From assembly GCA_032718475.1 (NCBI GenBank), contig JAUCBJ010005397.1:1-60457 (forward strand): a stretch of 60,457 nucleotides of DNA, given 5' to 3'. This DNA comes from Nemertoderma westbladi. Taxonomy: Eukaryota > Animalia > Xenacoelomorpha. This document shows, piece after piece, positions 17,010 to 48,555 of the stretch. The translations under genes and the position numbers were made by a program. The notes under the pieces were generated by a model that saw nothing but the letters and a program-made list of their open reading frames with translations, was not told where the DNA came from and did not search any database. Positions within the stretch are counted from its first letter, which is position 1. Each line of letters begins with the position of its first letter.

Positions 17010-20000
17010 TTATTTACTAGTATTAGGTGGAGATTTGTAATCTCCAGACTCGTTACGAGTCTCTTCAAGAAGTACGAGACGTTGAGTCGGTCTGTCTACT
17101 GTACGACCGTCAATTGTCCGTACTGTCACAGTTCTTGTCACTCCATCCATAGATGGATGTGTGGCTAAAATGACACCTGTTATCCAGAAGCGTCTTTTTA
17201 GATTCACTTCTGCCAACAGCACGTGATCTCCCGGCTTTAATGCGCGGGTGTTATTGTACCATGTTGTTCTGGCAGAAATAGAGGGCAAATAATGGTTTTG
17301 CCATATTTCCCAGAATTTGTTAGCCAGTAGTTGCGTGATTTTCCACGCTTTTCTACCGTAACTGTCGCTTTCTATTGGAATAGAAATAGGTGTCAAAGTT
17401 GTCGGTGCCTGCATAAGCAGGTGTGCTGGTGTTAAAGCGAACTGAGATTGTTTGTCATCGGGTACTAATACTATTGGTCTAGTATTTAGTATTGCCTCGA
17501 TTTCAACAAACAATGTTGTCAGTTGGTCGTCTGTTAATATGTGGTTTACTGGAATGACCTTTGCCATGGCCGTTTTGATAGATCTAATCAATCTCTCCCA
17601 GACTCCGCCTCTCCAAGGACTATCTGGAGGATTAAACTTCCAAACAATCTTGTGAGGTTGCAGTTCGTTCGAGATTTGATCATGATCTAATCTCTTAAAG
17701 GCTCTAGCAATCTCATTCCGAGCACCGACAAAGTTTGTCCCTTGGTCTGAGTACAAGCATTTTACTAGTCCGCGTCTAGCGATAAATCGCCGTAGTGCTA
17801 GTATAAACGCGTTGGTGGAAAGATCCATCACACGTTCAATGTGAACTGCCCTACTGGACATACATGTGAAAATCAGTCCCCAGCGTTTTACTAGTATACG
17901 TCCACGTTTAGTATGTATGGGACCAAAGCAATCAATTCCAGTCTCTGTAAAAGGTGGTCTGAATGCTTGAAGTCGTGCTTGTGGTAGTTCACTCATTTCT
18001 TGGGTACCTATTCTAGAATGTACCTTTTTACAAATAATACACGTACGTGTCACTGAACTTAATGCTTTACTGGGTCTAATTAATACAAATCTAGTACGTA
18101 AGTAGGAAAGACAGTGGTGTCTTCCAGCGTGTTTCAGATGTAGATGTGCGTCCAGTATCATTGCACGTTGTAGTTCGTGATGTTGCGGTATTATTATTGG
18201 GTACCTAAAGTTTGTGTTAAAGTCAATGTTTTGAAGCCGAGATTTATGACAAATCAAGCCATTATAAATAATCGGACTCCAACTCAGTATCGGTGACGAC
18301 TTGATTGGTTGACCTTGATGTATAGATGTGAATTCGCGCGCGAAATATCGCAGTTGGTAATGGCGAATTAATTTAATCTCACACCTGTCAATCTCAGCCA
18401 ATGTAAGTCGACGTGTAAAGTCACGTTTGCCTTTAACGTATTGTACAAAACGTACAATCCACGCTAATTTTCGGCAAGCGTTTGACCAAGAATCTGTTAG
18501 GTTTACAATACGGTCGACATGAGTATTTGTGACGTCATCAGGTAAGTCAATGGAGAATTTGGAAGGTTTTGAATTACTAGAAGGGCCCACGGGTCCGCCG
18601 GTAAGTATTCCCTTGTTGACTGTTGATCCGTCCGGGTCTACAAGTAATTTGTCCTTCTTTGTCTTCTTACCTTGATTGTCGGTACTTTGTAAGTCGATCG
18701 TTAATGGTAGTTTGAACTCTATGGGGTCAGCAGGTTTCGGTAAACTTATTTTTCTGCCGACATTAATCCCAGGTCTCAACGTAGGTTGCAGGTTCGGTAT
18801 GTCTCTTGAGCGCAAAGTAACACCTGTATTTACATTAGCGTAGGTACTACCCACATCTGTAATACATGAGGTTTCACCGTGCTTATGGTTGCTCAAGTGT
18901 GTCAAAATTGGTAGTTTGTCAATACAAGGCCGCTCCAATAGGGAAACTGCGGCTTTATTGTTAGTCAATACATTACTAGTGTCTAGTCGACTGTCTAGTA
19001 GTGTGTCTGGCGATACGTCTGGTAACGTATCTGGTTGTTTGTCAATAGAAGGCCGCTCCAATAGGGAAACTGCGGCTTTACTGTTTGTCAGTGCGTTACT
19101 AACGTCTGGTGGAACATTTTGTGATATGTCTGGCAAAATGTCTGGTTGACTGTCTAGTAACGTGTCTGGTTGACCGTCTGGCGATATGTCTGGTTGACCG
19201 TCTGGCGATATGTCTGGTGTAGAAAGGCTCGCAAGTCTTCCTCTCTTGACCTTTGAAGTTATATCTTTCCATTTCGCCTTCGGTTTCTTCTTGAGTTTAG
19301 TTGCCGTCGTCCTTTTCTTTGTATCGACGGGCATTGTTGGTGTCGTTGGGGTAGGTAGACTCGCAAGCCTATCATCTGTCGTCGATGGAATCTCTAGCTG
19401 ACTCGTCTTCTCCCCAAGTTCTAAACTCACCTTGTGGATTAGCTGCTCCTTGTGACTTATCATACTAGTTACACGTCTGTTATGTTTTGTATGTAAGGTA
19501 GTATGGTCCACGTCGTGTGAAAAGGAATGAATTGAATTTATAGTTAATAAACTACATGTACTCTGTACATCGTCTTCCTCGTCACTTACGTCTAGTGTGC
19601 GCACAGGCGCTCGAGTATACCACCCTATCGGCGTTCTGCAGGCGTATGCGTTTCCTGCTACAACTGCCGATGGTCTGGTTTCCCACACCTGGTGTAGGTT
19701 GAATTGGTCCGTCCCGATCAGCATTGCTACCGATCTATAATTGACAGGACATTCGGGTACACCAAGGTGTCTGAAATACTTACGGTCCTCCAGAGATTGT
19801 TCCGGCACTGGACCTAGTAGGTTACTAAAGTCCTTCGTGGCCGCAAAGGTTAGATCTCTAAAGGGCAACAAAGACCTCTCCCTCTCGCTGTGTTGCGATT
19901 TTGGAAGAAGAGAGTCTAAGTCCAACTTAACTCGTGTCACTGGTATTGCACGCTGTCCGTGCATACTACTTACTGTATAACTGACGTGCTTACCTTGTCT

Positions 20001-22511
20001 AAGATCTGTTACGACGTCAGCTATCTTTTCATCCACGTAACTGTGAGATGAGGCTGAGTCTAGAATCGCGTAAATCCTCTTACTCCCTTTTGTGCCAGTA
20101 ACTTTAATCGGGATTACACTGAATCCCTTCAGTTGGTCAGTGGTCAGGAGCGCGATTGACGGTTGTTCGTCTCCATTAGAATATTCGTCGTCGTCTGATT
20201 CTTCGTCCGACGATCCGGATTGTTCTGAAAAGCAATCCTCTATATGGGTCACGAAAGTCGGAGTTGTTTTCGATTCCCGTTTTCGGTAAGCCGCATCACA
20301 TCTCGCTGCTGCTTCCGGGTGTTCCCTGGCGAAGCGTTTCGTCGGCGTGTGGCTGTCTGTGTGGAGCAGACCGTCATGGTTGCGTCCACAGGATGGACAA
20401 GTGTCGGTATTTGGGCAATCCTTACGGACGTGTCCGTGTCGCGTACACCGCCAACAAGAGTCCAGTGGCCGTATCTGCAGCCGTCGTTCTTCTGAGTTCA
20501 ACTCGCGAAATTGTCGACAACCTCGTAACTTGTGACCAATATACCGCTTACCTAAATGTTCGCAGTATTGGCAGCCGTTGAAGTCGGCGCTGAGTTGCTG
20601 TCTCGTCTGTTTTGTCCCAATGGGCGCAGATACTCTATTACCGTCTGAGAATTGTCGTGATTCCGTCGGTGTGGCGTAAGTGGCCGTCTTTGTGGATGTT
20701 GTCTGGGGTTTTTGTCGGTTGGAGGATGGCAGTGTGATCCCTTCTGCCACGATGTGCTGGTCGGTATAGTTAGATCGAGTTTCTACTACCGCCTCCCTGG
20801 ATATTAAAAGGTACACATCTTCTAATTTCAGGAATCCTCCTCGCTCCTCTCGCTGGTATTCGACCTTCCTCCACTCCCGACGAAGTCGATGGTGGAGTCG
20901 TCCTATTATCTTTAATAGGACTGTAGGGGTATTCCCGTAATCAAGTTGTCCAATTGATCTTAAGGTAGTGATAGCGTTCTTGATTTCGTCAGCTAGTTTT
21001 AGTAAGTCGACGGGTTTAGTGATAGCCCCTCCCTTACAGAGTTCTTCTATTACTGACCTGGCCATACTCACTGTACCTCCGTATATCGAAGTCAAACGAT
21101 CGTACGCTAGTTCGAAAGCGTCTGGTACACCGACGAAAGTCTCCGCCAAACGTTTAGGTTCTCCTGACAACGTTTGGAGCAAGTAATTGAACTTCTCTCG
21201 TGATGTAAAGGCGCACACGGCGATCTGGGATTCAATATAGTCTACGAAGGTATGCCAGTGTTTTGAGCTACCGGAGAACTTCGGTGGTTGTTGTACCGGC
21301 AATCCCTGTCTGGCTGCGAATTTCGCTATCTCCTCTGCAACGTTCAGAGTTTCGCGTCCTTGGTTGGTAACCTGGTTGATGTTCTCCCTTCTTGGCGCTT
21401 TTCCCTGATACGATGTGGGGTTTGAAGGTACCGGTCTTTGTGGTCCCTTCGGGTGTCTATTGTGTTCGAATTCGGTGTTCCTCGAACTATCGGTTTGAAC
21501 TTCCTCCAGACGCTCCTCGATCTGAGCCAACTTGTTGACAACTGGTCGCAGAATGTCGGCGAACTGTTGTGTACTAATTGCGTCCGTTGGTTGTAACGCC
21601 TTCTGTGTTGGTGTATTCTGTGGAGGATTGTCTGCAAAGGAGTTGTCTGAACGCTCGCGTTTATATTCATCGGCCGCCCCTGTTCTAAATACCTCGCGTT
21701 TCGGGTAATCCGATTCGCTCGAAGTACTACTATCATCTGGATATGGTGGTCGACGTGCTCGCGTCCGTTGCGTCGTACGAATTCTAACGGCTCGTTTCGG
21801 AACATCGTCCACTGATCTCCGTTGTTCGGTAGGCTCACAAGTCTTCCTCGAAGTCGTAGATTGCGATGTAAACTGAACCGGTCGCGTATCCACTGTTCTC
21901 CGTTGTTCGGTAGGCTCACAAGTCTTCCTCGAAGTCGTAGATTGCGATGTAAACTGAACCGGTCGCGTATCCACTGTTCTCCGTTGTTCGGTAGGCTCAC
22001 AAGTCTTCCGCGAAGTCGTAGATTGCGATGTAAACTGAACCGGTGGGCGAATGACAGCATTTGAAACAACTGGCCTTGTAGGTCGAAACGTCATTGGGTA
22101 AGCGTAATGTGTAACGGGTTTAGGTGTCAAAGGTGGACTCACCTGTTTTGTCGTCAGTAGCGCAGGTCCGGTCAATAAACTACTACAATCCGTAATCGGT
22201 GGGTTACTTACCTTGACTTTCGGAATGGGCGACGACGTTGCTCTTGGCGGTGTAAACTCGTCCGGAATAACAAACCTGTGCTCCGTCGCACCATGGATAG
22301 GAGAAATGTTACTACTACCCGCAATCGAAACAGGTTCCTTAGTCGTAACCGGTGCAAACATATGAGTTACCTGTGGGAATCGTTGACACACGTCTTTTAC
22401 TAATTGTCGTTCCCGTCCGGGTGCTCCTACGCTTCCTTCCTTCTTTCGTTCCTGAATTTGGCGATGTCTTACCTCTAACTGGTCCAAGTCATGTCCGTCT
22501 CGAGATCTCAT
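17010..22511 (-). CDS. BEL/Pao Gag-protease-integrase polyprotein (1833 aa) without RT/RNase H
   Basis: BEL gag (PKFSG...KFNYLLQTLSGEPK), Cys/His knuckles (CWRCTRHGHVRKDC, CPSCGRNHDGLLH), protease AILDSAS (~20060), integrase HLHLKH...CIICKK, GIDCFGP, SDQGTNF, GGVWERL; no YxDD or RNase H motif. Confidence 0.92.
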   Translation of the reverse strand: MRSRDGHDLDQLEVRHRQIQERKKEGSVGAPGRERQLVKDVCQRFPQVTHMFAPVTTKEPVSIAGSSNISPIHGATEHRFVIPDEFTPPRATSSPIPKVKVSNPPITDCSSLLTGPALLTTKQVSPPLTPKPVTHYAYPMTFRPTRPVVSNAVIRPPVQFTSQSTTSRKTCEPTEQRRTVDTRPVQFTSQSTTSRKTCEPTEQRRTVDTRPVQFTSQSTTSRKTCEPTEQRRSVDDVPKRAVRIRTTQRTRARRPPYPDDSSTSSESDYPKREVFRTGAADEYKRERSDNSFADNPPQNTPTQKALQPTDAISTQQFADILRPVVNKLAQIEERLEEVQTDSSRNTEFEHNRHPKGPQRPVPSNPTSYQGKAPRRENINQVTNQGRETLNVAEEIAKFAARQGLPVQQPPKFSGSSKHWHTFVDYIESQIAVCAFTSREKFNYLLQTLSGEPKRLAETFVGVPDAFELAYDRLTSIYGGTVSMARSVIEELCKGGAITKPVDLLKLADEIKNAITTLRSIGQLDYGNTPTVLLKIIGRLHHRLRREWRKVEYQREERGGFLKLEDVYLLISREAVVETRSNYTDQHIVAEGITLPSSNRQKPQTTSTKTATYATPTESRQFSDGNRVSAPIGTKQTRQQLSADFNGCQYCEHLGKRYIGHKLRGCRQFRELNSEERRLQIRPLDSCWRCTRHGHVRKDCPNTDTCPSCGRNHDGLLHTDSHTPTKRFAREHPEAAARCDAAYRKRESKTTPTFVTHIEDCFSEQSGSSDEESDDDEYSNGDEQPSIALLTTDQLKGFSVIPIKVTGTKGSKRIYAILDSASSHSYVDEKIADVVTDLRQGKHVSYTVSSMHGQRAIPVTRVKLDLDSLLPKSQHSERERSLLPFRDLTFAATKDFSNLLGPVPEQSLEDRKYFRHLGVPECPVNYRSVAMLIGTDQFNLHQVWETRPSAVVAGNAYACRTPIGWYTRAPVRTLDVSDEEDDVQSTCSLLTINSIHSFSHDVDHTTLHTKHNRRVTSMISHKEQLIHKVSLELGEKTSQLEIPSTTDDRLASLPTPTTPTMPVDTKKRTTATKLKKKPKAKWKDITSKVKRGRLASLSTPDISPDGQPDISPDGQPDTLLDSQPDILPDISQNVPPDVSNALTNSKAAVSLLERPSIDKQPDTLPDVSPDTLLDSRLDTSNVLTNNKAAVSLLERPCIDKLPILTHLSNHKHGETSCITDVGSTYANVNTGVTLRSRDIPNLQPTLRPGINVGRKISLPKPADPIEFKLPLTIDLQSTDNQGKKTKKDKLLVDPDGSTVNKGILTGGPVGPSSNSKPSKFSIDLPDDVTNTHVDRIVNLTDSWSNACRKLAWIVRFVQYVKGKRDFTRRLTLAEIDRCEIKLIRHYQLRYFAREFTSIHQGQPIKSSPILSWSPIIYNGLICHKSRLQNIDFNTNFRYPIIIPQHHELQRAMILDAHLHLKHAGRHHCLSYLRTRFVLIRPSKALSSVTRTCIICKKVHSRIGTQEMSELPQARLQAFRPPFTETGIDCFGPIHTKRGRILVKRWGLIFTCMSSRAVHIERVMDLSTNAFILALRRFIARRGLVKCLYSDQGTNFVGARNEIARAFKRLDHDQISNELQPHKIVWKFNPPDSPWRGGVWERLIRSIKTAMAKVIPVNHILTDDQLTTLFVEIEAILNTRPIVLVPDDKQSQFALTPAHLLMQAPTTLTPISIPIESDSYGRKAWKITQLLANKFWEIWQNHYLPSISARTTWYNNTRALKPGDHVLLAEVNLKRRFWITGVILATHPSMDGVTRTVTVRTIDGRTVDRPTQRLVLLEETRNESGDYKSPPNTSK
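21812..22043. repeat. 81-bp coding tandem repeat x3 (PVQFTSQSTTSRKTCEPTEQRRTVDTR)
   Basis: Three near-perfect copies in DNA and protein. Confidence 0.95.
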
Positions 22512-22555
22512 CGATCGATCGCGGGCTTGTAGATCCAGATCTTCCTTGGCGTTGG

Positions 22556-23665
22556 CTAATTCTCTCGCCTTCCTCCCGAGTTCGAAATGAAGTTTAACTT
22601 CCTTCTCGCGTTGTCCGTCTGTCGTTGTTGCGCCTCGAACTCTGCTTGTCGTATAGCTGACTGAGCCTTTATTTGCCGTGTTTTCATCTCGGCTCTCGCT
22701 TCTGATACTAACCTCTGTCGCTCTAACTCGGCCGCAGCTGTTCGTTGCGCTAACTCGGCCGCTGCCGCTTGTTGTGCAATGTCCAACTCTAACCTTTCCA
22801 TCTCAGCCGCTTCCAACTCGGCTTGTTCTTGCAGATGAGAGATTCTTGCAACATCCGCAACGCGTAGTTTTTCTTCTTCTACCGCCGCTTGTGCCGTCAA
22901 CAATTGAGCTTGTTCCTCCGCTTCCCGTTGTTGTCTATCCACTTGTTGTTGCTGTCTGGAAATTTCTGACGTCACGATACTTATCTCGCCAATTTCGCTG
23001 CGAATACTCACTAACGATTGGTCCAGTATTCCCGGTGCCGATTCGATTCGTACGGGTGAAGTTTCCCTCGTATATTCCGGCACGGTTTCCAAATCGCCGA
23101 CGTCTTCGCCGCACATACGTAAGTGGTCCGTCAGATGTTTCAATTGTCCATCCAGTCGGTACAGTTCCTGTTCTTCCTCGGGCTGCAATAATTCGTCCGA
23201 AACTGACTCACCTAACAACTGGTCCGCTTGTTCCTGTTGTATCTGTCTAATCGTCGACTTAAACTGAATCAGTTTCTCTCTAGCGATCATTAGTTTCCCG
23301 AGGATTCTAAGTTGAGTATCCATGTCCTGTCTCTGTCTGGCTAGATCTTGTAGGCCAACTAGATTATCTACGGACTTATATACTTTACTCTGTACTCTAA
23401 CCTGGAGGGTGTAGAACTCGAATCGAGACATCGGAGCGGTCAACCCGTCTAATATGCGTTGGCCTTCTCCAATACTCCTGGTAATATGCGCCATATAACC
23501 TCCGACGCTCCTAACTACACTTTCTGTGCTTCCTGCTGAACTTACCATTTCCGTTTCCCTATATCTAGGTTGCGGAACAGTTAGAAAGTCCTCGGTCAGT
23601 CGGTCCTGCCGTCGCCTCGTACTACGGCATCCGGTACTCCCGTTGGATGTACTGGTGACGCACAC
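22556..23665 (-). CDS. gag: BEL-B Gag N-terminal coiled-coil ORF (out of frame with the main polyprotein)
   Basis: Q/E/A/R-rich heptads; VRVQSKV...LARQRQD resembles BEL-C VRERI...ASKRRQD; upstream 62-aa ORF (23784) starts MSDKQ like BEL-A/C gag. Confidence 0.7.
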   Translation of the reverse strand: MCVTSTSNGSTGCRSTRRRQDRLTEDFLTVPQPRYRETEMVSSAGSTESVVRSVGGYMAHITRSIGEGQRILDGLTAPMSRFEFYTLQVRVQSKVYKSVDNLVGLQDLARQRQDMDTQLRILGKLMIAREKLIQFKSTIRQIQQEQADQLLGESVSDELLQPEEEQELYRLDGQLKHLTDHLRMCGEDVGDLETVPEYTRETSPVRIESAPGILDQSLVSIRSEIGEISIVTSEISRQQQQVDRQQREAEEQAQLLTAQAAVEEEKLRVADVARISHLQEQAELEAAEMERLELDIAQQAAAAELAQRTAAAELERQRLVSEARAEMKTRQIKAQSAIRQAEFEAQQRQTDNARRKLNFISNSGGRREN

Positions 23666-24620: not shown

Positions 24621-24632
24621 TCATATTCCTAC
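24621..24632 (-). promoter_or_regulatory. Non-tRNA PBS-position 12-mer of BEL-B (GTAGGAATATGA)
   Basis: Abuts the 5' LTR; exact complement of LTR-internal 25687-25698 (and 12616-12627). Confidence 0.72.
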
Positions 24633-26099
24633 TAAATTGGAGAGATACGCCTATTCCTACTATCGGAAGAGACGGTAACAATACCTGCAATATCCTACTG
24701 TAAAGTTTGTAAATCAAATCATAAATCCGACCTTCTCACCAAAACAGTAAACCCTAAGTAAGCGAATATATTGCAGTATCGATCTCTTTTAACCGGTGAG
24801 GCAGAAAACAGTCTACGAGCAGACAAACTTCGATAAAACAAAAATCCCGCGCAGCGAATCCTAAAATCAGGCTGACTCACTGACGGACTAAGGGGCTCGT
24901 ATACTTTGCCGCGGTGTGATTTATATGGTTGGGCGAAGGGACGCTAGCTAGGTACAGAGCAGATGTTTGGAGATGTCTAACTAGCGGGCAAAGTGCAGTA
25001 AGGACGAAAGTTAATTTTATATATTTCGAGGTGTAAATAATTTCTAACGCGCGTGTGTTAATTCTGAACGGTCAAAACAGTTTTGCTCCTTCACATATAT
25101 AATTACTGGGTACGGTGTGCATTTTACGAATATTCTAATTTTATAACTTGTAGGTCCAATACTTACGAATGATAAGGTTCCTTCCCCTCTTGCGTATTTC
25201 CAGGACTCAAATTCAGGCATAAGGTTAATACTACGCCCAGAATTCGGCAATTTTAGGTACCAGGTCCCTGATACTAAGAAGAGATGTGTTAGTTTACTAC
25301 TGTAGGCGTACGGGTACTAATAGCTATCCTGGCTCCTATCTAGAATTTTAGTCACCCAGGTAGTCCGGGTAACTTCCTATTAGGGCGTTGGCGGGGACAC
25401 GGTAGATGTTAGTATATCCCTGATAGCCTCAATTTATTTGCGCCTAGTGTAAACTGCCCTACCGCCTGAACGGTACAATCCCAATTCAGGTGAAAACACA
25501 GCAACCCCCCTAGCCTACAAGTTCTGATGTAATGGACACCGTTGTACGGCAAATAGTCGCACACACACCTGTACTTAGCAAGAGTTAAGCGTACAGTTTG
25601 CTGCACCCTAACCAATGTGTATGCCTTGTACCGGTGTGCCTACGTCCTATCTGCGTACTAGTATCTGCTCTCTCTCCCTCCCCCCCGTAGGAATATGAAG
25701 GTCTACTGCGGTTTTCCCTGAATCAAGACAGTACAGTCCCTATGATGTAATTTTGGGCTTGCAGCGTGTCACTACGTCTACCTGTTGATCTTTTGGTCTT
25801 ACACTTAGGTAGCAAGGATCGAACGCTGTCTAACCTTTCAGGCGATGGGCGAATAACTCTAAGATGGTATTGCGGGTTGTCTCTCGTCTACATTCCCGTG
25901 ATGTTCCCGTTCATTGCTGCGGCCCGATCTCTAGCCGGCCATCCTGTCCCTGAGTTTGTTCACCGTAGTGAAACCATAGTAAAACAGATAGAAAGCTGAG
26001 ATGTGACTAGTATTTCTGACTTTATTACAAAAGATATAATAACTATTATACAATAAACAATGTAATCTGAAATAAGACAGAAAGGATTGAGAGTGAATG

Positions 26100-26280
26100 A
26101 TAGAAGTGAACTAATGAACAAATCGCACCTTTATATACTAAATTTGTGCCGCAATCAATCGAGAAAATTCTCGATTGTTCTATGGGTTCTAACGGGGTTT
26201 TAAAGATAGCTATTGGTCCAGCTAATATATAACTTGCACGACATTGGTTACAATCAAATAACTACAGCCTTATTGGTACA
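26100..26280 (-). promoter_or_regulatory. Putative Pol II promoter in BEL-B LTR (3x CCAAT + TATATAAA)
   Basis: Minus-strand CCAAT near 26272, 26243, 26212; TATATAAA at 26137-26130; Inr-like TCACTT ~30 nt downstream. Confidence 0.55.
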
Positions 26281-26333
26281 GACAAATGCAATTAATTTGT
26301 AGCGGTTAATTTAAATGAGTTGAAATTCTGCAC

Positions 26334-26420
26334 AAAAAATAATTCGCACTTACTAGGATTCGAACTCGATACCTACTACACATATAATTTCCAACGCTCT
26401 ACCAACTGAGCTACTGAACC
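26334..26420 (-). ncRNA. tRNA-derived Pol III cassette in 5' LTR
   Basis: Copy of 13263-13349: A box 26413-26396, B box 26365-26356, T6 26339-26334. Confidence 0.6.
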
Positions 26421-26551
26421 ACTTGACCGATAGATGCATAATAGATAGAACCAATACTAATGAGAACTCAAAGCAATCTTTACAAAGTTAATTCGAATAA
26501 AATAAAATTTTGAAAATCCACGGCATTTAGGGAATATAATTCTATAGAAGC

Positions 26552-30899: not shown

Positions 30900-32071
30900 T
30901 GTAAAATCTTTTGCGGAATTAGCCGGTTATTTTCCCCGTAAAGTACTCTGTAGTTGGTTTAACAGGCATAAAAAGCCGTATCCTTACTGTACTGGTGTTT
31001 TGGGGGACATGGGAAGCCATTTCTTCTGTATGTGTACTTTAGCGGACATAATTAGCAATTCTATGACGCAATGCGCTAGATCCTCTTGAAACAGTGTAGT
31101 TACTATGACGACAGCTAACAGCTGAGCTGTACACGTGTAGCTTTTTCCTTGTTCTCTGGTGTTTCTTTGTTCGGTCAACCAATCAGAGCGATTCTCCTGC
31201 TTTTTGTACAGAAACCTCCGGGAAATCGCGCAATGCATTATGGGTCAATGTTTACATTTTGTCCTGAGCCCAGAAGACCGGCTTCGGAATCTCTGTGTTT
31301 TCAGTCTTTAGCCCAACATTAGTAGGCTTAATTATAGAACGTATATCTGTTATCTTACTCACTCACCTAATCATATTGTCAACTACAAACACCGCATTTT
31401 TACTGCTATTTACTGTTGGTTATTCATTATATCATTTGATGGAATATTATTATATTGGATAATATCCATAAATTAATCCTAAAACCCTCAATCTTCTTGA
31501 TATACTGAAGGTAAGAGAGACCGGTTACATATAACGATTGCGACTTACATTAAAGTGGTTCTGAAGTGAATCTAATGCTATTTCATAGGCACTACATGTA
31601 TTGGTTGTTGTTCTCTTTATATGTGACTAAAATTAGTGAAGGTTGGCAGATCGGTGTGCAGCATTGTGCAGTATTGTATATGATTGTGACTGATAACAAA
31701 GCATCTCCTAAAGAATGCGCCATATACGTGAATCTATAGCCATCCCGTTGTGTCTAGTTTAAGTCATAAGTCTGTTTACATATTTAGAGCGCCACGTCCT
31801 AAAGGAACTGTTAATATTTCCCGAAAGTGAATAATATTTGTCAGAGATTATATATTACGATCAGTCGAATAATACAGTAGGCCTACACCGCAATACGGTT
31901 AGGCTTCCGAATCCAGTCTCCCGGGTATATCCAGCGGGTGAATGGTCGCGCATAGACTGGCTTCGGCTAATGTAGTGTATCAAATACTCGTCATAGGCTA
32001 AAGACGATTTATTATCTAGAAGACATCCCAATTTGGCAGGTTAAACTGCTAAAGGTCTAAAAGCGCGAACA
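30900..32071 (+). repeat. 5' LTR of BEL-C
   Basis: TGTAAAA...GCGCGAACA; direct repeat of 48556-49727. Confidence 0.95.
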
Positions 32072-32083
32072 ATAACAGATATA
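32072..32083 (+). promoter_or_regulatory. Non-tRNA PBS-position 12-mer of BEL-C (ATAACAGATATA)
   Basis: Abuts the LTR CA; exact complement of TATATCTGTTAT at 31342-31353. Confidence 0.75.
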
Positions 32084-34501: not shown

Positions 34502-35312
34502 ATGTCTGACACCAAGCAAAACCTGTCAGACAGTCTCCTAGATACAACAATCTGTGACCCAGACAGGAGTGTGGAACGTGTGAGACCGAAGTTCAACTCA
34601 CCTCCTACTGTAAGAAAGATCATTCCCCCAGTAGTAATATCAGACCCTAGGCTGGTCCAACACCGTAGGTCTATCATAGGCACTCGAGCTCAGGTCAAGC
34701 GGGACCAAGAAGCAGCGGAACAGCAACAACCCGCGAGCCGAGAACTTATTTCTCAGCGGCCCGACAGCTCCAGTAGTGCGGATACTGTAGAGCTGACACC
34801 CGAGCACGGAGCAAAGATGACAGATGCGGTTTATTCGGATCCCCTTCTCATCCTTCCTGCAGCCGTACTCACTAGGTTATTGATTGCGGTGGAGGAACAC
34901 CAGATTGATTGGGCGAGAAGTAAGCGATCAACTAAGGATAGTTATGCGGGATACACAAGGGAAGAACTGAAGTCTATTGTCGAGTCGCAATGGAACTTCC
35001 CCGGACCCGGACTCCCGTTTGACTTATCGGAAGCTGCCTGGGAAGACATACACAGGATGGGAGTAACCAAGGAAACCATCGATCCAGCTGTGTGGAAGAG
35101 GTCCGCAGCCGGATACGTACAGGGATTCTTCAGCTCCATGGAGCGATTAGAAGAACAATTGTTTAGACAACCACAAGGACCTCAAGAGCAGGGAGAGCTG
35201 CTTTATCAAGTTCGAGAAAGAATTCTAAGAATCAGACTAATCCTATCGGCCTTTGAGGAGGCTTCGAAAAGAAGACAAGACACGTCGTTGCAAGTTGCCG
35301 TAAAGACTTGGT
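34502..35312 (+). pseudogene. gag: BEL-C gag N-terminus, interrupted by the Gypsy insertion
   Basis: MSDTKQNLSDSLLDTT start matches BEL-A; the rest of the 324-aa ORF runs into antisense Gypsy sequence. Confidence 0.75.
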
Positions 35313-38254
35313 CGATGGTCTTTCCCCTTCCTCCAGGTGGTAGTAAACTGGTAGCCGGCCAGTTTGCTTTTAAGCCGCTGGAGGCGTGTGTTGTCAGTTG
35401 CGTCGATGGTATATTTGTCGAGGATGGTCACCAACGGTTTATGGTCCACGATCAGTTCGAAGTGTGGGAGGCCTAGCAGAAAGAGGCGACATTTCTGGAC
35501 CGCCCACGCGACGGCTAGCAGCTCCATCTCCACCATCGCGTACCTGGACTCCGCGTCCGTGGTGAAGCGCGATCCGCACTCCACCAGTCTCCAGGTCTTT
35601 CCGTGGAGCTGGAGTAGTGCATATCCCAGTCCCTTGAGTCGCGAGGCGTCAGTGACCAGCTGAGTGGCCAGGGCTGGGTCGAATGGTGCGAGGACGGGCG
35701 GGGTGGTGAGTGCCCGCTTTGTCGCCTGGAAAGCTCGCTCGTGGTCGCTTGTCCAGATGAATGTCGACTTAGTGCTGAGTAGTGTACGGAGTGGGGACAT
35801 GGCCGAGGCAATCTCGCCGGAAAATGGAGCCAGCTGTTCCACGAGCCCCACGAAACTCCGGAGATCCGTGATGTTCCCCGGACGAGGGAAGGAAGCGATG
35901 GCACTGAGCTTGGCTGGATCGGCGTGTATGCCATCCGAGCCAATTAGGTACCCGGCGAATTTCACCTCGCTCTGAGCGAACTGGATTTTATCCGGGTGTA
36001 GAGTGATCCCCTGGGCCCGGCACCTCTCTAGGAACCGCCGTACGTCGGACATGTGCTCCTCCATAGTGTCGCTATAGATGAGCACATCGTCCACAACCTT
36101 GACGAGGTTGGGCAGTCCCTGAAGGGCGTCATCTCCGCGGCGGTTGTATTCGTCGCCAGACGAAATTAACCCCATCACGCTGCGGAGGTGGCGATAGCGG
36201 CCCCAGGGGGTCGCGAATGTGGTGAGGAGTTGCGACTCCACGTCGAGTGGGACTTGCCAGTATCCACTGGCGGCGTCAAAGACGGAGAAAATTCGAGCCA
36301 TTGTTGAAACTCCGGCAACCGCCACCCGTGGGTTCGGGGTGGGGTAGTACGGGCGTCGCACCTGCGAGTTGAGATGTCGCAGATCGACGCACAACCGGAG
36401 TTTCCCGCTCGGTTTTCTCGCGACCGTTAGCGGGTGGGCCCAGTCCGTGGGTTCCTCGACCTGTGCGATGACCTCCCGCCGCTCCAAGTCATCCAGGAGT
36501 TCTTTGACCTCGTCCCGCAATGCGAAGGGGATAGGTTGAGCACCGTTTACATGGAACGGGGTAGCATTCTCCTTGAGCTCGATGTGCATGGGTGGACCCT
36601 GCATGGTCGGTAACGGGGCCGAAGGGTCGTCCAGTACATCCGCAAACTCGAGGAGGAACTCCGCCCTGGTTTCGGGAACCGAGAAGGGGTTGTTGTCCCG
36701 CACGGACGCCGTGTTGCAACTGAGGGGAGTTGGGAAGTTGGCGGGGAGGATCCGTAAGTCCTGGATCACGGCCTTCGAGAGGATCAGGCCTTCGACCTCT
36801 GGAGAGATGAGGAGATCAGTCGTGGCCGACGCTCCCTCATACTCGATCCGCGCTGGGAATCGTCCCAGAGTTTCTAGGGGAAGTCCGTCGGCGGCAACGA
36901 GGTTTACTCTGTTTGACGGGAGTAGGTCCACGCGCTTTCCCCCGAGTCGGAGGAATTCCTTCTCATTGAGGAGCGTGGCCGCCGCGCCGCTGTCTGGAAG
37001 GGCGTTCCGAACTCGCCCCAGAGTGGCTCCGTCCCGGGAATCGCTGAGTTTGACTGTGACATAGGAGAGGTCGCATGTCGCTGGGTCGGAGGTGATGCGG
37101 TTTATGTCGTATCGACGTATAACCGTGTTGAGTTTCTTTGGCGCGGTTGTCTTGTCTTTGGAGCGACAGACCGACTCGAAGTGGCCCGTCTTCCCGCAGT
37201 TGTGACAGACCACGCCCTTGGCGGGGCACTCCTTGCCCTTATCGTGTGTCTTGTGGCTGCAGTTTCCGCAGTTGTGCTCCTGATTGCGTCCTCGTGGAGG
37301 GTTGGATGAGCGAGTATGGGAGGCGGATCGCTCGCGTTTGTACGTTGACAATTTGGCGACGGGTTTGCCGCTCGCAAGAATCGTCTCGTTACGCCCACTC
37401 GCCTCGACGCCCTGGGCGATGCGGACGCAGTCCTCCAGTGACGGCTGTGGGAGGACCTTTAGGAGCTCTGTGCGTGTCTCGGAGCACCGGATTCCCACGA
37501 GAATTTGGGTTACAATCTGCCGGTCACGGCAATGTCCGCACAGATCGGCGTTGTCGGCGAGCTCCTCAAGGGCGACCCGGAAGGAATCGAACACCTCATT
37601 GGGGCCCTGACGCCGCTCGTGGAATTTTATCGCGTCGATGGCGATACTCCGTTTGGTGCGGAGGTGTCCCTGTATAGCGTCGAGAATCAGCGCCGGGGTT
37701 GTGTCCGTGCTGTCGATGTCGACATGTAGGGTGACTCGCAGCGTCTCTTGAAGGGCGCTCCCCAGCGCAGCGGCGAGCGCATAGACCTGTTCGCCCATTG
37801 GGAAGTCGGCGACCTGCTGGCGCTGGGCGTGAACACCCCACGCGCGTCGCCATCGTCGGAACGTGGCGTAGTCGACGCTGGTGTCGATGCGTTCCAACGT
37901 GGCAATGTCGATGACGCGGCGACGCGGAGGAGCGGGGTTCGCCGCAGCCTGAGCGAACGTCGGTGGCCCATGTTGGGCCGCAATAGGAGCGGTAGCGACG
38001 GGCTGCAGCGCTGCGAGGAGTTGCGCCAGGCATGCGTCCGTGGCTGCCTGGGCGGCGTGGTTGTCCGCCTGCTGCTGCGCGAGGCGAGCGTCAGTGGCTG
38101 CCTGCTGCTGGGCAAGGAGCTGAGCCATGGCCGCCTGGTTATCCGCCTGTTGTTTTGTGAGTAGCATCGCAAAGTCATTGAGTTTAAACGGGGGGTTGCC
38201 CTCCTCATCGTCTGATGCGGTGGGGCTTTATTTCTTCTTGAGCTTGGGCGGCAT
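35243..38254 (-). pseudogene. pol: Gypsy gag-pol, truncated after RNase H
   Basis: CHNCGKTGHFESVC, LPDSGA, LRLCVDLRHLN, DAASGYWQV, VDDVLI, TDAS...EMELLAV...VDHKPL; homology ends at WRKGKDH. Likely ATG at 38254 (MPPKLKKK) with in-frame TAA at codon 9. Confidence 0.9.
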
Positions 38255-38339
38255 GTTCAATGTCGATGCCCCAAGTTTTCGCGAAGACGTGTTGTCGATA
38301 CAGCGATATGATTTCCAGCGTTGGTTCGAACGTTAAAAA

Positions 38340-38349
38340 CACTGCACCA
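38340..38349 (-). promoter_or_regulatory. Canonical tRNA-type PBS of nested Gypsy (TGGTGCAGTG)
   Basis: Begins with TGG immediately after the LTR CA. Confidence 0.75.
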
Positions 38350-38673: not shown

Positions 38674-40181
38674 GTGGAAAGTGAAGCGACGGTAGAGAAA
38701 CCGCATAAGAGGGATGCTATTGACATCTATCTGTCGGACTATCAACGTTTTGTAGGAGATGAAGAGTTGAGGAGAAGGCTAGATGGACTTAGCCCTAACA
38801 GTGAAGGAGCCAAGCTTGTGTTGGACGCAATCGATGCGGATATGAGAGCTACGAACCAAGCTAAATTTGATGAACGCCTCCGCATCACTAGAGTCCAAGA
38901 AGAACAAGTAAAGAAAAAACGTATAGAAGACAGAAAGATAGCAGCAGCGGCAGCAGCAGAGGCAGAAGCAGAAAGAAAAGCGGCAGAAGTGGTTAGAAAA
39001 GCGGCAGAGGCAGCGGCAGAGGCAAAAGTGGCAGCGGCAGAGGCAAAAGCGGCAGCGGCAGAATCAGAAAGAAAAGCGGCAGCGGCAGCAGTAGAAGCGG
39101 AAAGAAAGCGAGCAGTGGCAGAAGCAGAAAGAAGGGCATCTGAAGAGACCACCCAACTAGAGTTGGAAAATATTCAAGAGAATCAAGACTGCATAAATAA
39201 ACAGTTAACAGCTAGTCAAATGCAGATGATGAGTCGATCTACTCCCAAAAGACAGGGATATACATCATCTGAGGAGGGCGATACCACCGATACTGAAGGT
39301 GGAGGAAATAGATCTCGTCTCAGCAGACGTAGAAGAATGTCCCACCGTCAGAAATTGCCTGATTTGCCCCCAGCTGTTCGAAAACAACTAACTAGTACAG
39401 ACTTAGGTAGTACAGAACCCATAGACCAAATTATTAAAATAGACAGACTCCCTACTATAGTAGATGAGCCTGAAATAATTAGGCCTGTTCCCGAAGCCAC
39501 CCCTTCGGTGATAGAGACACCTGTACTCCCAGAACCTACCTCTAAATTATCTTTGCATAGCACTAAGCTACCTGTGCCCAGCAGAACAGCCCATGAGACA
39601 GTTTATGTCTTAGACTCCAAGCGAAATATTAATGATTTGTCGCCCGTTGTCCCTCGTCCGCCCGCTACAACGTTGGCGGATCCCGCTTCGGCGGTCGAGT
39701 GGGTGGATGAGAGACAGCGGGGGATGGATCTCCTGCTCGAGCAGATGCAGGAGACTGTTAAGCAGTTCAAGGGCACAGTAAGGGAAAGTAGGTTAGAGTT
39801 GCAAGAAGTGCAGCAAAGTATCGCGTTAGAACGCGATAAATTAGTAAATACACAAAAGGGTATACCACCACCCCCGGTAACAATGTGTCAACCTGTTAGG
39901 TCTGAAGTATCTCATGCGCAAGGTGTGGAGCCTACACGCATCTATACTGCTAGTGAAGTAGAAACTCCTATAGTGAACCCTATTAAGGGTAATTATAAAC
40001 CTGTTGACAATGATATTCCCTATAGACTTGATCATAATCCGAGAAATTTATATACCGATAACTCGATATTAAATAACACGATGGCCCAAGAAAGTTTTAC
40101 GCGTCAAATGGCTAGAACCGAAGCCCGTCAAGCGGTAAAGGTGGGAGAGATCGTCAAATTCAATGGAGATGAGATGAAATG
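38674..40181 (+). pseudogene. gag: BEL-C gag coiled-coil/linker, truncated at the start of the capsid-like domain
   Basis: Matches BEL-A gag; homology stops at IVKFNGDEMKW (cf. BEL-B PPKFSGSSKHW) then jumps to RNase H. Confidence 0.8.
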
Positions 40182-42589
40182 GTTACTTTGGTTATTTTGG
40201 TCATGTTCTCCCTACGTATTCCTATCAACTCCATGTGTTTGGAGACGCCAGCGATATGGTAATAGGTATAGTAGCCTACCTAAGAGTGGAAACTCCGGAT
40301 GGAATCAAAGTCGCCTTGGTTACCTCTAAGGCATTGATAAACAACAAGTTGAAAGTTCCTCGAGCTGAGTTAAAAGCGGCTCTATACGCTACAGCCATCG
40401 ACCGGAATGTAACAGAACAGATCGACTATCCACTGGAGAAAACTGTCTATTGGACCGATGCTTTACTCGTGTTGGAGTATATAACCAATGAAGTCTGTCA
40501 GTTCAGTGTCTTTGTTACCAACAGAGTAGCCATTATACTTAGTCGCACGAAGATGGATCAATGGAGACATTGCCCCGGAACGATCAATCCAGCAGACATC
40601 GCCTCCAGGGGAGCTACTCCACAAGAACTGGTAGATACTCCAGACTGGTTAGGTGGACCCGACTTCCTCTACAAAGAAGAAGAAAAATGGCCTCCTCATC
40701 TTACTACGGCAGAGATCAGACAGGCCAAGGGAGCGGAGAAAGTCAAACCTAAAACTCGGGCGAGTAAATCGAAGTTATTTAAACCTATGGTAGATCTGTC
40801 TGTACTACATGTTTCCGGAGACGACGCTTTGGATCAGAAACCCACAGCCATAAATAAGTCTGTTGTGGAAATCCGTGAGAAGGATTGGAAATCTGGAATA
40901 CCAGACGTCTCGCAAGGACTCTCACCTCTCCTGCAGAGAGCGATACATCACTACAGTTCCTGGAATCGGCTCTGTAAAGCCGTTACATATTTAAAAAGAT
41001 GTTTTCATCATCACTACTCCGGGACGAAGACCAAAAGTGATACCGCTCCGCTGACATCGGTGCAGGTCCATGTTGTTAAAGATCTTCCCAAATATAAGAT
41101 ATCCGACAGGTTTCTGAAGGAGAAGATCAGTTATCAGGTGCATGAAGAAACCAACAAGCAGATGCTGAGACTCCTGCAATGCTATGAGGATTCCGATAAG
41201 TATTTCCTGTTGTTGAGAAATCCACAGATGCGCTTAAGGGATCGTTTCTCTAGCACAATGATAGATGGGTTGATACGTGTTGGAGGAAGATTAACGAATG
41301 CTCCATTATCCTTTGACACTAAATTTCCCATACTCATTAGAAATCTTGAGATACAAGTCAAGATGATTGTAGATGTTCACAGCAAACTTTATCATGCTGG
41401 TAGAGAATGAGTTCTTAGCGAAATTCGAACTCGCTATTATTTCTATAAACCCCGTAGAGCTCTGAACCAAGTTCTTAGGAACTGCATACCCTGTAGGAAA
41501 GCATTCAGTAGGCCTTTAACACAGCGAGAGGCAGAATTACCTAGGGAATGAGTAAGCTTCTATGAACCACCCTTTACTAATACCGGTGTAGATTTATTTG
41601 GCCCTATTGAAGTATATCGTGCTAGGACTATAGTCAAGAGATGGTGTGTCATCTTTGTTTGTATGACTTGTAGAGCTATCCATCTCGATATGGTGAACGA
41701 TTTATCTACCAACAGCTTCCTATTAAGCTTACGACGACAGATCGCTCGCTTTGGAACTAGTAACACGATGAGATCTGATAAGGGAACAAACTTCATTGGT
41801 GCCAACAATGAAATCAAAGCTTATGTCAAAGATTGGAACCAAAGACAGGTGGACGATCAGCTACGGGTAACAGCGTCTAGCTGGACCTTCAACGCCGCCA
41901 ACGCCCCTTGGTGGGGAGGAAGTTGGGAGAGATTAATAAGGAGTGTGAAGACCGCATTTCACTTTATAGTGCCGTGCCGCGCGTATCTCACCGACGAACT
42001 TTTGCGGACGTTAATGGAGGAAATCGCCGCCTATCTCAACGAGAGACCGCTTATGCCAGTCTCATCGAGTCCCGATTCCCTGGAAGCACTAACACCCGCG
42101 CACTTCCTACTGAAGAAACCTGTAGTCATGCTCCCACAATCGGAAATCACAGACGGAGACGAATACTGCCGGCAAACTTGGCAACTCATGCAGTTGTTAT
42201 CCCGTCGTTTCGCTGACCATTTCGAAAAACACTATCTGCCCACGCTACAACTTCGAACGAAGTGGTTTGCGCAGCAAGAAAACGTCAGCGCTGGAGACAT
42301 GGTCCTTATTGTGGATTCAGATCTTCCACGTAAGCGGTGGCAGACAGATTGTATCATCGAGACTCACATCTCGGATGACGGTTTGGTGCGATCGGTAGAA
42401 CTCGTCGTCATGCGACGTAACTTCAAGAAACCGGGAATTGTCTTCGAGACACAGCAGCTCAATCGCCCAGTTGGTCGTTTATGTTTACTGGAAAGAGACA
42501 GAGAACTCTCCGGAAACTATGGAAGACAAGATACTCTTCCCACGACCACCTCCCTAATCCAACAAACATCTAGGGACTCCCCAGCTTAG
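40182..42589 (+). pseudogene. pol: BEL-C pol remnant: RNase H + integrase with in-frame stops; PR and RT deleted
   Basis: LHVFGDAS...AYLR...PRAELKAA...WTDA...NPADIASRG; HSKLYHAG, GVDLFGP, SDKGTNF, GGSWERL; TGA at 41408 and 41548. Confidence 0.9.
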
Positions 42590-44224
42590 CAGCGTATGGA
42601 GTGGGTGTGTGACCATATTATTTTATATTCTTATCATTTTATATTTATGTATGTATTATTATGTAATTTTATTATAATCGTTTTCTTTAATTTTATTTAG
42701 CAGAATGTTATTTTAGCGATTATTTAGTAGATTAGTGCAATATATATTCGCATTTATTATTTAATTACTTATATATTATATATTTAGTGCGACGGCGAGA
42801 AATAATTATTTTTCTCTTTCCTTACTGTCCGTATTACATTACAAATACGTAACTACAGTAAGATGAAATATCCGTACTTATTAAAGTACAATAAAGCTCC
42901 TACTATATTCAAGTATTATTGGTAAAGTAGAGTATTAGGAATGCAAAATTCAGATCCTCGTGTCTCGGCTAAACCAAGCTCTGGGTAGACCTTGGAAACG
43001 ACTTGCCTCTTCTCACTGACATTGCTTCGTGCGATATTGCTCTCATACCGTATATTAAATAATACATATAGTAGCGTGATGTCCCTTTAACAGTAGCGTA
43101 TAACGCAAAATAAATCTGTTAAATCCTTTGACCATCTGCAATTCTAGTCGATTAAGATATCGCGGCACCCACCGATATACTTAAAAGACAAAATTCTAGA
43201 ATCAGTGGTTAACGTCCCCAGACAAGTTCTGGAATAAACTGGTGCCCATCCTAAATATTAATTATTAATATTTACAAAATCTGTCAAATTTTAGATCCTT
43301 TAAATTCTAGTCTATTAAGATATCGTAGCACTTACCGATATTCTTAAAAAGACCAATTTCCTAGAATCAAGGATCCTAGTCCCCAGACATGTTCTGGAAT
43401 AAAATTGTGTCTATTTAATATTAAATAATAAAATTTACGGGAATGAATTTAAATTCATGTTTTAATGAATTTAATAAATTGTCATTTTTATACAATTTAT
43501 AATATTACCAAAATTCCTTTAATTAATAGATCATGGGAGCGGAGATTCACTCTATTAAGTGTATTAGTGTGCGAGAATCTCCAATATATAGTCAATAGCC
43601 GATAAAATTCATAAAATCATGTATAGAGAGGATATTGACCATTAAAGAATTACTATTAAATAGCATCCCAGATCTGTATGCATGAGAATTACCCTAATTC
43701 TACCGCTAGCTTTCCATAATGTCACCATGGCAACAACCACGCTAGAATTAGAAGTGAGTTAAAAGAACAATAGAAAGCTTGCCCCATGGAATAGCATAGG
43801 GAATAAATAGCGCACTGCTAGTATCCAAGGATACATAATAAATAAAGTGACATTCTGGAAGGCACTGACTAACGGACAAATGGCCCGAATGTGTACAGTT
43901 TGTGACAGTTGTGTTGAATTTGTGCGTTTATAGGTGAATGTTACTGCTAAAGTGTGTTTACAGTAGCGAGTCGCAATTGTGAAAGTAGCCCTAACTCTCC
44001 AGAAAGAACCTGAAGTACATCCAAGCCTTTGGGACGGACAGTGGAGTGACTTGTGCCGGTTATCGTTGTCGTTGTGTAGCTACATCGTTGGCGAAAGCAC
44101 AGCGACGACGGTACATCGGCGCTGAGGATCTTGCACTGTCCGGGGGCAAAAGAGGGGTAGGCAGCGACGCCCGCTAGCCTAATATATAAACTCATTATAA
44201 TATTGATAAACTCATATAGCAGAT

Positions 44225-46435
44225 ATGACTGAGTTGATAGAAGATGATCTTGGTATCAGGGAGCGATATACTCTACCTTTACAAGCGTTTGTCGATAGCT
44301 TGATACGCGGCGACGCTGGTCCAACTACTACGGAGGATGATGGTCGTTATATCGAACCGCCAATGTCCCCGGAGCAACTTACGCGTGAATTGGATTATAG
44401 AAAGTTCACCGCTCGCTATACGCATCGTAATGGTACGTATATGGACTTCTTAACTACTGGCCATCCTATCGATTTACACGATACGGACGATGTAGACACC
44501 GAAAGGGAAATGGTTTTATTTAAATATCATACCCAGCGGAGTCGGAACGATAAACCGAGAATAGAACACGAGAACTCTATTCGAAACAGACTCGAAAGGG
44601 AAGACGTTGAAGAGCCGGATAAACGCAGCGACTTCAACGATTATCTGGAATTCCTGAGAGAGACATATCTCAATATTGCCAGCCAACAAAATCTCGAAAC
44701 TCGATATCCTCAAGGTATACATCATGATCCTATGATAGAACTCAAACGACTCTATTTCACTATGATGTATCTTACCGCCGATCGACCGCTACCTGTCGTC
44801 CCAGATAGCTTCGAACAGATGGAGGAATATTGTAAAACTGGAGAACGATCACCCGCGTTTCCCCTGCAGGACGTGCGTCTTTGGTATTACTGCGACGAAT
44901 GCCCTAGACCCAATCAGCAAACGGAAAGGCATAAACATCCGCGGAGACGTTGCGCTAAACACAGTTTTACACGATATACTTATGGGAGTTTCGAGCGAAA
45001 CCTGTTCGACGTATCACCTACGGTCGCTCGGCTCAAACGATCCTTGAATAAACCAATGATCAGAGTTCCGGAATACTCGGTCAGACCTCCTCATTCCTCA
45101 GTTAGACCTCAGACTCTTGATCCTAATAGTATCACGGATCCTCCCGAACTGTACTCACTGTTCAAAGATCTAGTGTTACCCAAACAGTTGATCGGTGGCA
45201 CTCCGGTAGTGGGCTCGCTAGATATTCGCCAACCCTACCTAGCCGGATTAGGACGCGGTCATCTAATATCGCCGTTTAACCCGTACAACCGTCCCGGCTT
45301 CACCCCGATACAACCCGTTACGGAAGTCGAAGAGAGCGTCGTACGAAACGCGTTAGACGCTATTCGGCAGAAAATCGGAAAGGGAACTTACGATTGTTTG
45401 GAGAAACGTAAATTGCAGCAACAAGTCCAAGCGGTGAAGGAATTAGCTTTACCCCAGTTCGATAGAGAAATACAAAATCTCGAGGAGGACATCGAACGTG
45501 GACGAACCTACTCTTTACAAGAGTTCCTAGATGAGCGTTTACAACAACAAGCGGAGGAAAATCAGCTCGAGGAGAGACATATAGAACTAGATGAGAGAGA
45601 AGAAGCAGCTTTAGCCCAGCCAGAAGCTCAAATCCTAATAACAGATCTCTATTCTAAAACCATTATCCATCCTTCGATGGTTCCTCATTTCGGAGACAAA
45701 CTCTTCGCCACGGCACAGCCTCAACCGGTTGATATCAACCTAAGATCTCGAGATCTTATCGCTGACGCTCCCATGTTGCAACGTCCGCCCATCGAAGCCG
45801 CTCGTGTCGATGGTATACTCGTTGAACCTCCGGACAATAGAGCGGATCTTGTCCGTCGCATGGTACACGATGTTAACATACGCGCTAGACCTTTACCGGA
45901 CTCGTTTTATGGGATCAAAGATCACCCTTATTATGTCAATCTAACACAATATTACATGGTAAAACCGGAAGATCCTACACATAGTCTGAGGTTTCTACCA
46001 CTCATAAATCCTCTCGATCTTGTCGAACTCGAACAACTGCAGAAACATCTGGATCAGTTAGTTAAAATAAACTCATTTCGAAAACCATATAATGTTTCCA
46101 GAATAGAGAAAGAAACAATACCTCCGTATAATCTTGATGGATTCATCAAAACTCGATTAGTACACTGGAATCTTGACGTGTTATTCGAGGAGGAAAGAAT
46201 ACAACGATATGGAGATGTGGAAACATATACTACACAATATTTAAAGTATAGAGATCTACCTAATGCTAGCGAATGCGCTACCTTGTGGCATCCAGTGGGA
46301 ATGACCCTCGAAAACGCCACTAAAGAGTGGAACGAGACTCTTAACGTTATCGAGATGTATGGAGTTGTCACTTACGATAACGAAGGTAGCGTTCCGGTTG
46401 GAGAACTGGGAACTACGCGGATGATACACATATGA
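44225..46435 (+). CDS. BEL-C accessory protein, N-terminal part (736 aa; CxxC...CxxH motif, coiled coil)
   Basis: Long ORF between integrase and 3' LTR; homologous to BEL-B 15705-16454; same frame as 46481-48529, separated by one TGA. Confidence 0.8.
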   Translation: MTELIEDDLGIRERYTLPLQAFVDSLIRGDAGPTTTEDDGRYIEPPMSPEQLTRELDYRKFTARYTHRNGTYMDFLTTGHPIDLHDTDDVDTEREMVLFKYHTQRSRNDKPRIEHENSIRNRLEREDVEEPDKRSDFNDYLEFLRETYLNIASQQNLETRYPQGIHHDPMIELKRLYFTMMYLTADRPLPVVPDSFEQMEEYCKTGERSPAFPLQDVRLWYYCDECPRPNQQTERHKHPRRRCAKHSFTRYTYGSFERNLFDVSPTVARLKRSLNKPMIRVPEYSVRPPHSSVRPQTLDPNSITDPPELYSLFKDLVLPKQLIGGTPVVGSLDIRQPYLAGLGRGHLISPFNPYNRPGFTPIQPVTEVEESVVRNALDAIRQKIGKGTYDCLEKRKLQQQVQAVKELALPQFDREIQNLEEDIERGRTYSLQEFLDERLQQQAEENQLEERHIELDEREEAALAQPEAQILITDLYSKTIIHPSMVPHFGDKLFATAQPQPVDINLRSRDLIADAPMLQRPPIEAARVDGILVEPPDNRADLVRRMVHDVNIRARPLPDSFYGIKDHPYYVNLTQYYMVKPEDPTHSLRFLPLINPLDLVELEQLQKHLDQLVKINSFRKPYNVSRIEKETIPPYNLDGFIKTRLVHWNLDVLFEEERIQRYGDVETYTTQYLKYRDLPNASECATLWHPVGMTLENATKEWNETLNVIEMYGVVTYDNEGSVPVGELGTTRMIHI

Positions 46436-46480
46436 GGACTCGCTGGTTCTACCCACGTATTTACGCGAGCGTGTTCCGAT

Positions 46481-48529: not shown

Positions 48530-48540
48530 ACTAAAATCCC

Positions 48541-48555
48541 ATTTTCTGGGAGCGG
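48541..48555 (+). promoter_or_regulatory. PPT-position motif of BEL-C (ATTTTCTGGGAGCGG)
   Basis: Directly precedes TGT of the 3' LTR. Confidence 0.7.

Follow-up and report, generated by a model that had tools for sequence, protein, structure and literature searches.

BEL/Pao retrotransposons with primer-binding sites complementary to their own LTRs: probable self-priming, often by a spliced primer

Primer-binding sites of the window elements

The ICTV profile of the Belpaoviridae describes an 18-nt primer-binding site (PBS) for host tRNA-Arg or tRNA-Gly (PMC8742986). The 60,457-nt stretch of Nemertoderma westbladi DNA analysed here (contig JAUCBJ010005397.1; the window) contains three BEL/Pao elements, BEL-A, BEL-B and BEL-C, and one solo LTR, and raises the question of what primes reverse transcription in them: no TGG occurs within the first 100 nt past the LTR end in any of the three, as the initial annotation had noted for BEL-C. 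What is found there is a site complementary to the element's own LTR, and this self-complementary PBS is real and lineage-wide.

BEL-C occupies 30900-49727 on the plus strand and is delimited by an LTR pair and the target site duplication (TSD) GTGTT at 30895-30899 and 49728-49732. Its 5' LTR (30900..32071, 1172 nt, TG..CA ends) is 98.9% identical to its 3' LTR (48556..49727, 1172 nt). The PBS ATAACAGATATA at 32072..32083, with a spacer of 0 nt, is the exact reverse complement of the predicted self-primer TATATCTGTTAT at 31342..31353, which is positions 443-454 of the 5' LTR and has a copy in the 3' LTR at 48998-49009; the match ends at 12 nt. BEL-A, a minus-strand element about 83% identical to BEL-C and cut by the window end, has its PBS at 2645..2656 and its LTR 12-mer at 3404..3415, and the three substitutions that separate it from BEL-C in the PBS and in the LTR site are all compensated. 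The solo LTR of this A/C family (7254..8397, minus strand, TSD GCACA) has the BEL-C version of the 12-mer (7963-7952). The initial annotation had reported these pairings, and every coordinate it gave was correct on rechecking. Farther 3' in the BEL-C LTR lies a splice-donor-like GTAAGA (31511-31516, plus strand), conserved in BEL-A and nearly conserved in the solo LTR.

When 12-mers were slid along the BEL-C leader, 1 of 2317 was complemented in the LTR, namely the one at offset 0. Shuffled 12-mers found an LTR complement once in 20000 trials for BEL-C, twice for BEL-A and five times for BEL-B. Three compensated changes plus nine unchanged sites, at the 17.5% divergence between A and C, have a rough chance probability of 3.5e-5.

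BEL-B belongs to a separate family, and blastn comparison of its LTRs with those of BEL-C gave no match. It runs from 26546 to 11562 on the minus strand, with TSD GCTTC, a 1914-nt 5' LTR with TA..TA ends (24633..26546) and a 3' LTR (11562..13475) of 100% identity to it. Its PBS, GTAGGAATATGA at 24621..24632, is again an exact 12-nt complement of its own LTR with a spacer of 0 nt; the predicted self-primer lies at 25687..25698 (LTR positions 849-860, copy at 12627-12616), and 1 of 900 sliding positions in the leader is complemented in the LTR. The initial annotation was right about the A/C pairing, which was the only one it described, and overlooked this one. The distance from primer to PBS is 718-1054 nt in the window elements. 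In BEL-B, a second copy of the LTR end together with 11 nt of the PBS lies 37 nt downstream (24595-24585, minus strand), a potential second priming site.

Contigs from four host sequencing runs have the block 31315..31354 (plus strand) in common among diverged family members, and depart from the window sequence behind 31354, right after the BEL-C 12-mer. One-letter variants inside 31315-31354 occur in single contigs, where they cannot be linked to a PBS. Among the matches listed from these contigs there was neither a joint or insertion inside the BEL-C 12-mer nor an intron-bearing A/C copy. An Rfam search of the window returned zero matches.

An internal control, outside the self-complementary system, is provided by a Gypsy-type fragment nested antisense in BEL-C (35246..38349, minus strand; Gag, protease, RT and RNase H; about 60% G+C). 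Its own primer site, at 38349-38340, is an ordinary TGG one, which shows that N. westbladi does have sites of the tRNA type. At 388-390 (minus strand), BEL-A has a match to 34548 joined straight to a match to 38677-39079, and is without the approximately 4 kb that BEL-C has there, the nested Gypsy piece included.

BEL-B and BEL-C have the two LTRs, TSD and purine tract of BEL/Pao elements (in BEL-C at 48542..48555, plus strand, with a GGAGCGG end that is the same in BEL-B), as well as BEL-type Gag/Pol and integrase domains by Pfam: DUF1759, Peptidase_A17, Integrase_H2C2 and DUF5641. In BEL-C these comprise a pol fragment at 40178..41407 (Peptidase_A17, E 4.5e-14) and an integrase with DUF5641 at 41552..42586 (E 5.2e-19), both on the plus strand; in BEL-B, a single frame of 1930 aa (17013..22802, minus strand) matches DUF1759, Integrase_H2C2 and DUF5641. 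Neither the reverse transcriptase nor the tRNA-type PBS of the Belpaoviridae is present in the window copies. Comparison with five full-length BEL proteins gave no RT match in BEL-B or BEL-C, and the 1930-aa frame has no RT or RNase H match. BEL-B, with identical LTRs and one open Gag-to-integrase frame, is a young non-autonomous element, and the window copies count as non-autonomous derivatives of BEL rather than complete Belpaoviridae members; lacking RT, BEL-B and BEL-C would need an autonomous partner. Neither this absence of RT nor the splice-assembled form of the primer described below had been recognised in the initial annotation.

Downstream of the integrase, BEL-C has an extra frame or frames (44210..48526, plus strand) with a single stop at 46433-46435 and cysteine/histidine knuckles. 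It matches BEL-B extra frames with E 3e-8 (16172-15885) and 3e-16 (15633-15004), at 27-33% identity in two blocks between 44210-48526 (plus) and about 14340-16466 (minus). No homologue was found among 7994 database candidates, and Pfam gave nothing env-like. Other repeats in the window are an imperfect inverted repeat of about 860 nt (54587-55448, 80%), foldback- or MITE-like, and tandem arrays at 6675-7066 (49 nt) and 58582-58790 (15 nt).

Relatives and intron-split sites

Relatives were collected from metagenome contigs searched with an integrase alignment. From the best 80 of 500 confirmed loci, 33 with the 5' part missing were left out and 47 leaders were scanned. A self-complementary site of 10-15 nt was found in 25 of the 47, a TGG tRNA-type site in 6, and no call was made for 16. 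Eight of these sixteen have no recognisable LTR end; the other eight have no TGG, their LTR being mostly absent from the contig or, in L046, unmatched. Within the 25 self-type leaders the site is contiguous in 5 and takes both forms in one (L031), while in 19 the LTR yields the partner only when the two sides of a GT-AG intron are joined. These 19 loci represent 16 distinct families, as L007, L041 and L052 repeat L010, L030 and L054. Five loci (L019, L037, L039, L044, L047) were classed additionally by means of the 3' LTR copy, and in L044 the two halves lie in different copies. A first inverted-repeat scan that ignored splicing gave many chance matches and overlooked the intron-split cases. 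Viral contigs searched for relatives yielded none.

Certain candidate sites were set aside. A TGGGG 12 nt past the LTR of L030 was dropped as a tRNA site in view of a 12-nt junction match starting at 3 nt, a contiguous 10-mer in L052/L054 was dropped in favour of a junction match of 11 nt that lies 9 nt farther along, and the matches of L009 and L051 in the leader scan were taken as chance. In L054, positions 1-6700 hold tandem BEL elements with one common LTR, a second primer site and gag following on from the 3' LTR.

That the complementarity arises by chance or from a one-off inverted duplication is virtually negligible as an explanation. A+T-rich sequence does yield chance 10-mers: contiguous matches, found in 12 of these 47 leaders, also occurred in 4 of 47 reversed-but-not-complemented controls. 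Junction matches of at least 10 nt, however, were found in 15 of the 47 leaders, L009 being one of the 15, and in none of the 47 controls, and the controls refute chance, the match being position-specific, family-specific, compensated and lineage-coherent. At least 10 nt of complementarity to the own LTR was found for 22 of 25 elements, against 8 of 600 cross-family pairs (two of the eight involving the related L027 and L030), a comparison that is circular for the 13 of 25 LTR ends picked by eye with the match known. L011 fails this test solely through its AAG acceptor, and has a 13-nt match in the leader scan. For twelve elements the LTR end was fixed independently (the three window elements, and nine loci by comparison of two LTRs), and in 10 of the 12 the match to the own LTR amounts to 10-15 nt. 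Seven of the nine relatives are among them, five split and two contiguous; the remaining two are L004, which is TGG-type, and L046, which has a fixed end, no TGG and a match of only 7 nt.

The same data bear on the idea that the pairing is a structural element, serving packaging, dimerisation or splicing control, while some other primer, for example a tRNA half, is used. Long-range pairings between LTR and leader are known in retroelements and lend this a general plausibility. Priming by half-tRNAs exists in Copia lineages, according to the available text of PMC6317226. A structural role nevertheless appears improbable, given that every match begins within 0-6 nt of the LTR end and is oriented into U5, that a match to the own LTR is seen in each of some 20 unrelated sequences, and that the TGG-type elements have no such match (0-6 nt against their own LTRs, mostly short LTR parts being compared).

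The 13 introns tabulated are 71-426 nt long, with GTAAG donors and YAG acceptors, and divide the primer into halves of 4-9 plus 4-7 nt. In the unspliced form, folding predictions give the remaining half a pairing probability of 0.00-0.03 in 13 of 13 cases. At one locus, L031, the 3' half comes immediately after TTTCAG in one LTR copy, and the second copy contains the 11-mer already joined; DNA with the joined form, at the junction that was predicted, therefore exists. The contig does not reach the donor, and the two copies, being 88% alike, may stem from different insertions.

Quick, unrooted trees built from the integrase only place these classes in relation to one another. Among 29 classed rows, one branch (SH-aLRT 99) splits 23 self-type from 6 TGG-type elements; primer type changes once on this tree, and intron presence at least four times. 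BEL-B and BEL-C are sisters on long branches (SH-aLRT 95, 92 and 99 in three trees), and their placement is unsure. In a larger tree, most self-type loci fall in a 44-row clade (support 98) that also includes proteins with names from fish, sea urchin, crinoid, copepod, anemone and clam; the primer types given for this clade are those of the scanned loci. Four TGG loci group with mosquito, moth and springtail proteins, and L037 and the BEL-B plus BEL-C pair lie outside the 44-row clade. Our guess is that this clade is the Sinbad/Sailor lineage of PMC6238403, reference elements not being part of the tree. DUF5641 is present in all 120 relatives among the matches listed.

A model of priming from the 5' LTR and its alternatives

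Taken together, all variants in which the element supplies its own primer make self-priming very likely. The initial annotation had suggested priming by the element's own RNA, and both BEL-B and the 25 of 47 leaders (from the best 80 of 500 loci) now argue for it. The particular form that we consider probable, judging from sequence, is priming in cis by RNA of the element's own 5' LTR, in the manner of Tf1 and often after splicing. The primer would be 10-15 nt of element RNA from the 5' LTR, replacing the host tRNA. The element RNA would fold back so that the LTR stretch pairs with the PBS, its 3' end toward U5; as happens in Tf1, the element's RNase H would cleave at the duplex's 3' edge; and RT would extend the primer through U5 and R before a jump to the 3' R. 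Plus-strand synthesis would then copy the primer and so remake the PBS. The Tf1 primer is reportedly not removed.

If the PBS is remade from the primer, LTR mutations would enter it and the ends of the match would be sharp, and the compensated changes between BEL-A and BEL-C may be templated and not only selected; they signal self-priming either way. Everything up to the primer end would be inherited from the 3' LTR copy, and for this reason an intron would persist if the 5' copy loses it by splicing while the 3' copy retains it. For the 19 intron-split relatives we therefore envisage that the host splices the GT-AG intron out of the 5' LTR copy, the one near the cap, assembling the primer, while the 3' copy would stay unspliced and pass the intron on. 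Were the 3' copy spliced too, intron-less LTRs like those in the window would result. Cap-dependent recognition of the first exon could favour splicing of the 5' copy.

A self-derived primer might also act in trans, a short or spliced LTR RNA priming an unspliced full-length template, with a solo LTR, a prematurely ended 5' LTR RNA or a second packaged RNA as its source. This would remove the need for differential splicing of two LTR copies in one RNA; the solo LTR of the window does keep the 12-mer, the family is very abundant in the host sequencing runs, and the in-cis fold is fragile in folding predictions. We regard it as unlikely on present evidence, however, since the Tf1 precedent acts in cis (as described in the available text of PMC7175516), folding predicts the in-cis duplex for an RNA that begins near the 12-mer, and matching confined to the own LTR is explained by cis action without further assumptions.

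The folding predictions, single folds throughout, are weak evidence for pairing. For BEL-C and BEL-A the predicted duplex probability is 0.89-0.97 when the RNA starts no more than 10 nt from the 12-mer. With longer 5' leads (20-40 nt) it falls in BEL-C to 0.32 and then to 0.02 at 40 nt, and in BEL-A to 0.01 at 20 nt; the BEL-A fold is also sensitive to the 3' cut (0.08 versus 0.95). Folding from the primer start gave 0.15 for L037, 0.29 for L039 and 0.37 for L030.

A consensus TATA lies within 250 nt of the primer in 7 of 19 relatives analysed, 31-167 nt upstream: at -31 in L037, -49 in L005 and -122 to -167 in five loci. The primer would accordingly sit inside the 5' transcript, and in those five it would be internal, unlike the Tf1 primer; the position in L037 fits a start at the primer itself. 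AATAAA or ATTAAA follows the primer in 15 of 22 LTRs. The window elements have no consensus TATA within that distance, including at -30. BEL-C, BEL-A and the solo LTR have a TATA-like word about 5-10 nt upstream of the 12-mer, and some 30 nt beyond the word come CA-rich bases resembling an initiator; in C and A, transcription could start downstream of the 12-mer.

Such a start would suit a primer taken from the 3' LTR copy, the RNA being cut in U3 so that the new 3' end primes; the initial annotation had raised this source on account of the TATA-like word. The word is indeed present in BEL-C and BEL-A, but the argument does not generalise: BEL-B has none near its 12-mer, and the consensus TATA, in those relatives that have one, lies at least 31 nt upstream of the primer. 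Strand transfer, moreover, requires the 3' R, which this cut would take away, so that a second RNA would have to stand in; we give this source little credence.

Position among known self-primed elements, and significance

In Tf1, according to the available text of PMC7175516, the RNA's initial 11 bases pair with the PBS, and RNase H cleaves between bases 11 and 12. Self-priming is known in Tf1/sushi, Tcn1 and the Copia TAR lineage (available text of PMC6317226). As in the window elements, a PBS of about 11 nt at the LTR complements the own LTR in Tf1/Tf2, Tf1/sushi and Tcn1 (available parts of PMC7175516, PMC5341516 and PMC6317226). The Tf1/sushi group consists of Ty3/gypsy chromoviruses, whereas the window elements have BEL-type domains, so that they work like Tf1 without being members of that group. 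They differ further in the 718-1054 nt between primer and PBS, in that among relatives an intron often interrupts the primer, which may lie inside the transcript, with a spacer of 0-6 nt, and in that cleavage and priming are proven for Tf1 and here inferred from sequence. The TAR lineage (Houba, Osr-1; plant Ty1/copia) resembles them in two respects: its self-priming is likewise predicted from PBS-LTR complementarity, and its superfamily, like BEL/Pao, is otherwise tRNA-primed. It is a Copia lineage of plants, however, and the available text of PMC6317226 does not mention an intron-split primer.

With the Belpaoviridae the window elements share LTRs, a 5-bp TSD, a purine tract and the domains DUF1759, Peptidase_A17, integrase and DUF5641; they differ in their length of 15-19 kb, the missing RT and the extra downstream frame, and BEL-B also in its TA..TA ends and 1.9-kb LTRs. 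The named BEL lineages (Sinbad/Sailor, Dan, Suzu and Pao) are placed by RT/RNase H phylogeny, and the window copies have no RT. What appears most novel is the splice-built primer predicted for the relatives. The literature covered, to which Repbase Reports and subscription journals do not belong, yielded no self-priming BEL element and no splice-made primer. The words PBS, primer, tRNA and priming are absent from the available portions of PMC3118150, PMC554778, PMC6238403 and PMC8556966; further background is available, in part, in PMC13524379, PMC6934838, PMC11042837 and PMC12440569.

On balance, we lean toward a still broader picture, in which a large branch of BEL/Pao in fish and marine invertebrates would use no tRNA primer. 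Most of its families would build the primer by splicing from the 5' LTR while keeping the intron in the 3' copy, host splicing would license replication, and intron-less primers would arise repeatedly through splicing of the 3' copy. A splice-made primer predicts copy-specific splicing of two identical introns within one RNA.

The ICTV profile defines Belpaoviridae replication as tRNA-primed, and a self-type PBS departs from that definition. If the reading is true, self-priming would occur in all three superfamilies of LTR retrotransposons and across a wide animal lineage, and would bear on which of self-priming and tRNA priming came first, a question raised in the available text of PMC3601003. 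Silencing by 3' tRNA fragments would not reach the elements, annotation that requires a tRNA site would overlook them, and a primer made by splicing would connect the spliceosome with reverse transcription in a new way.
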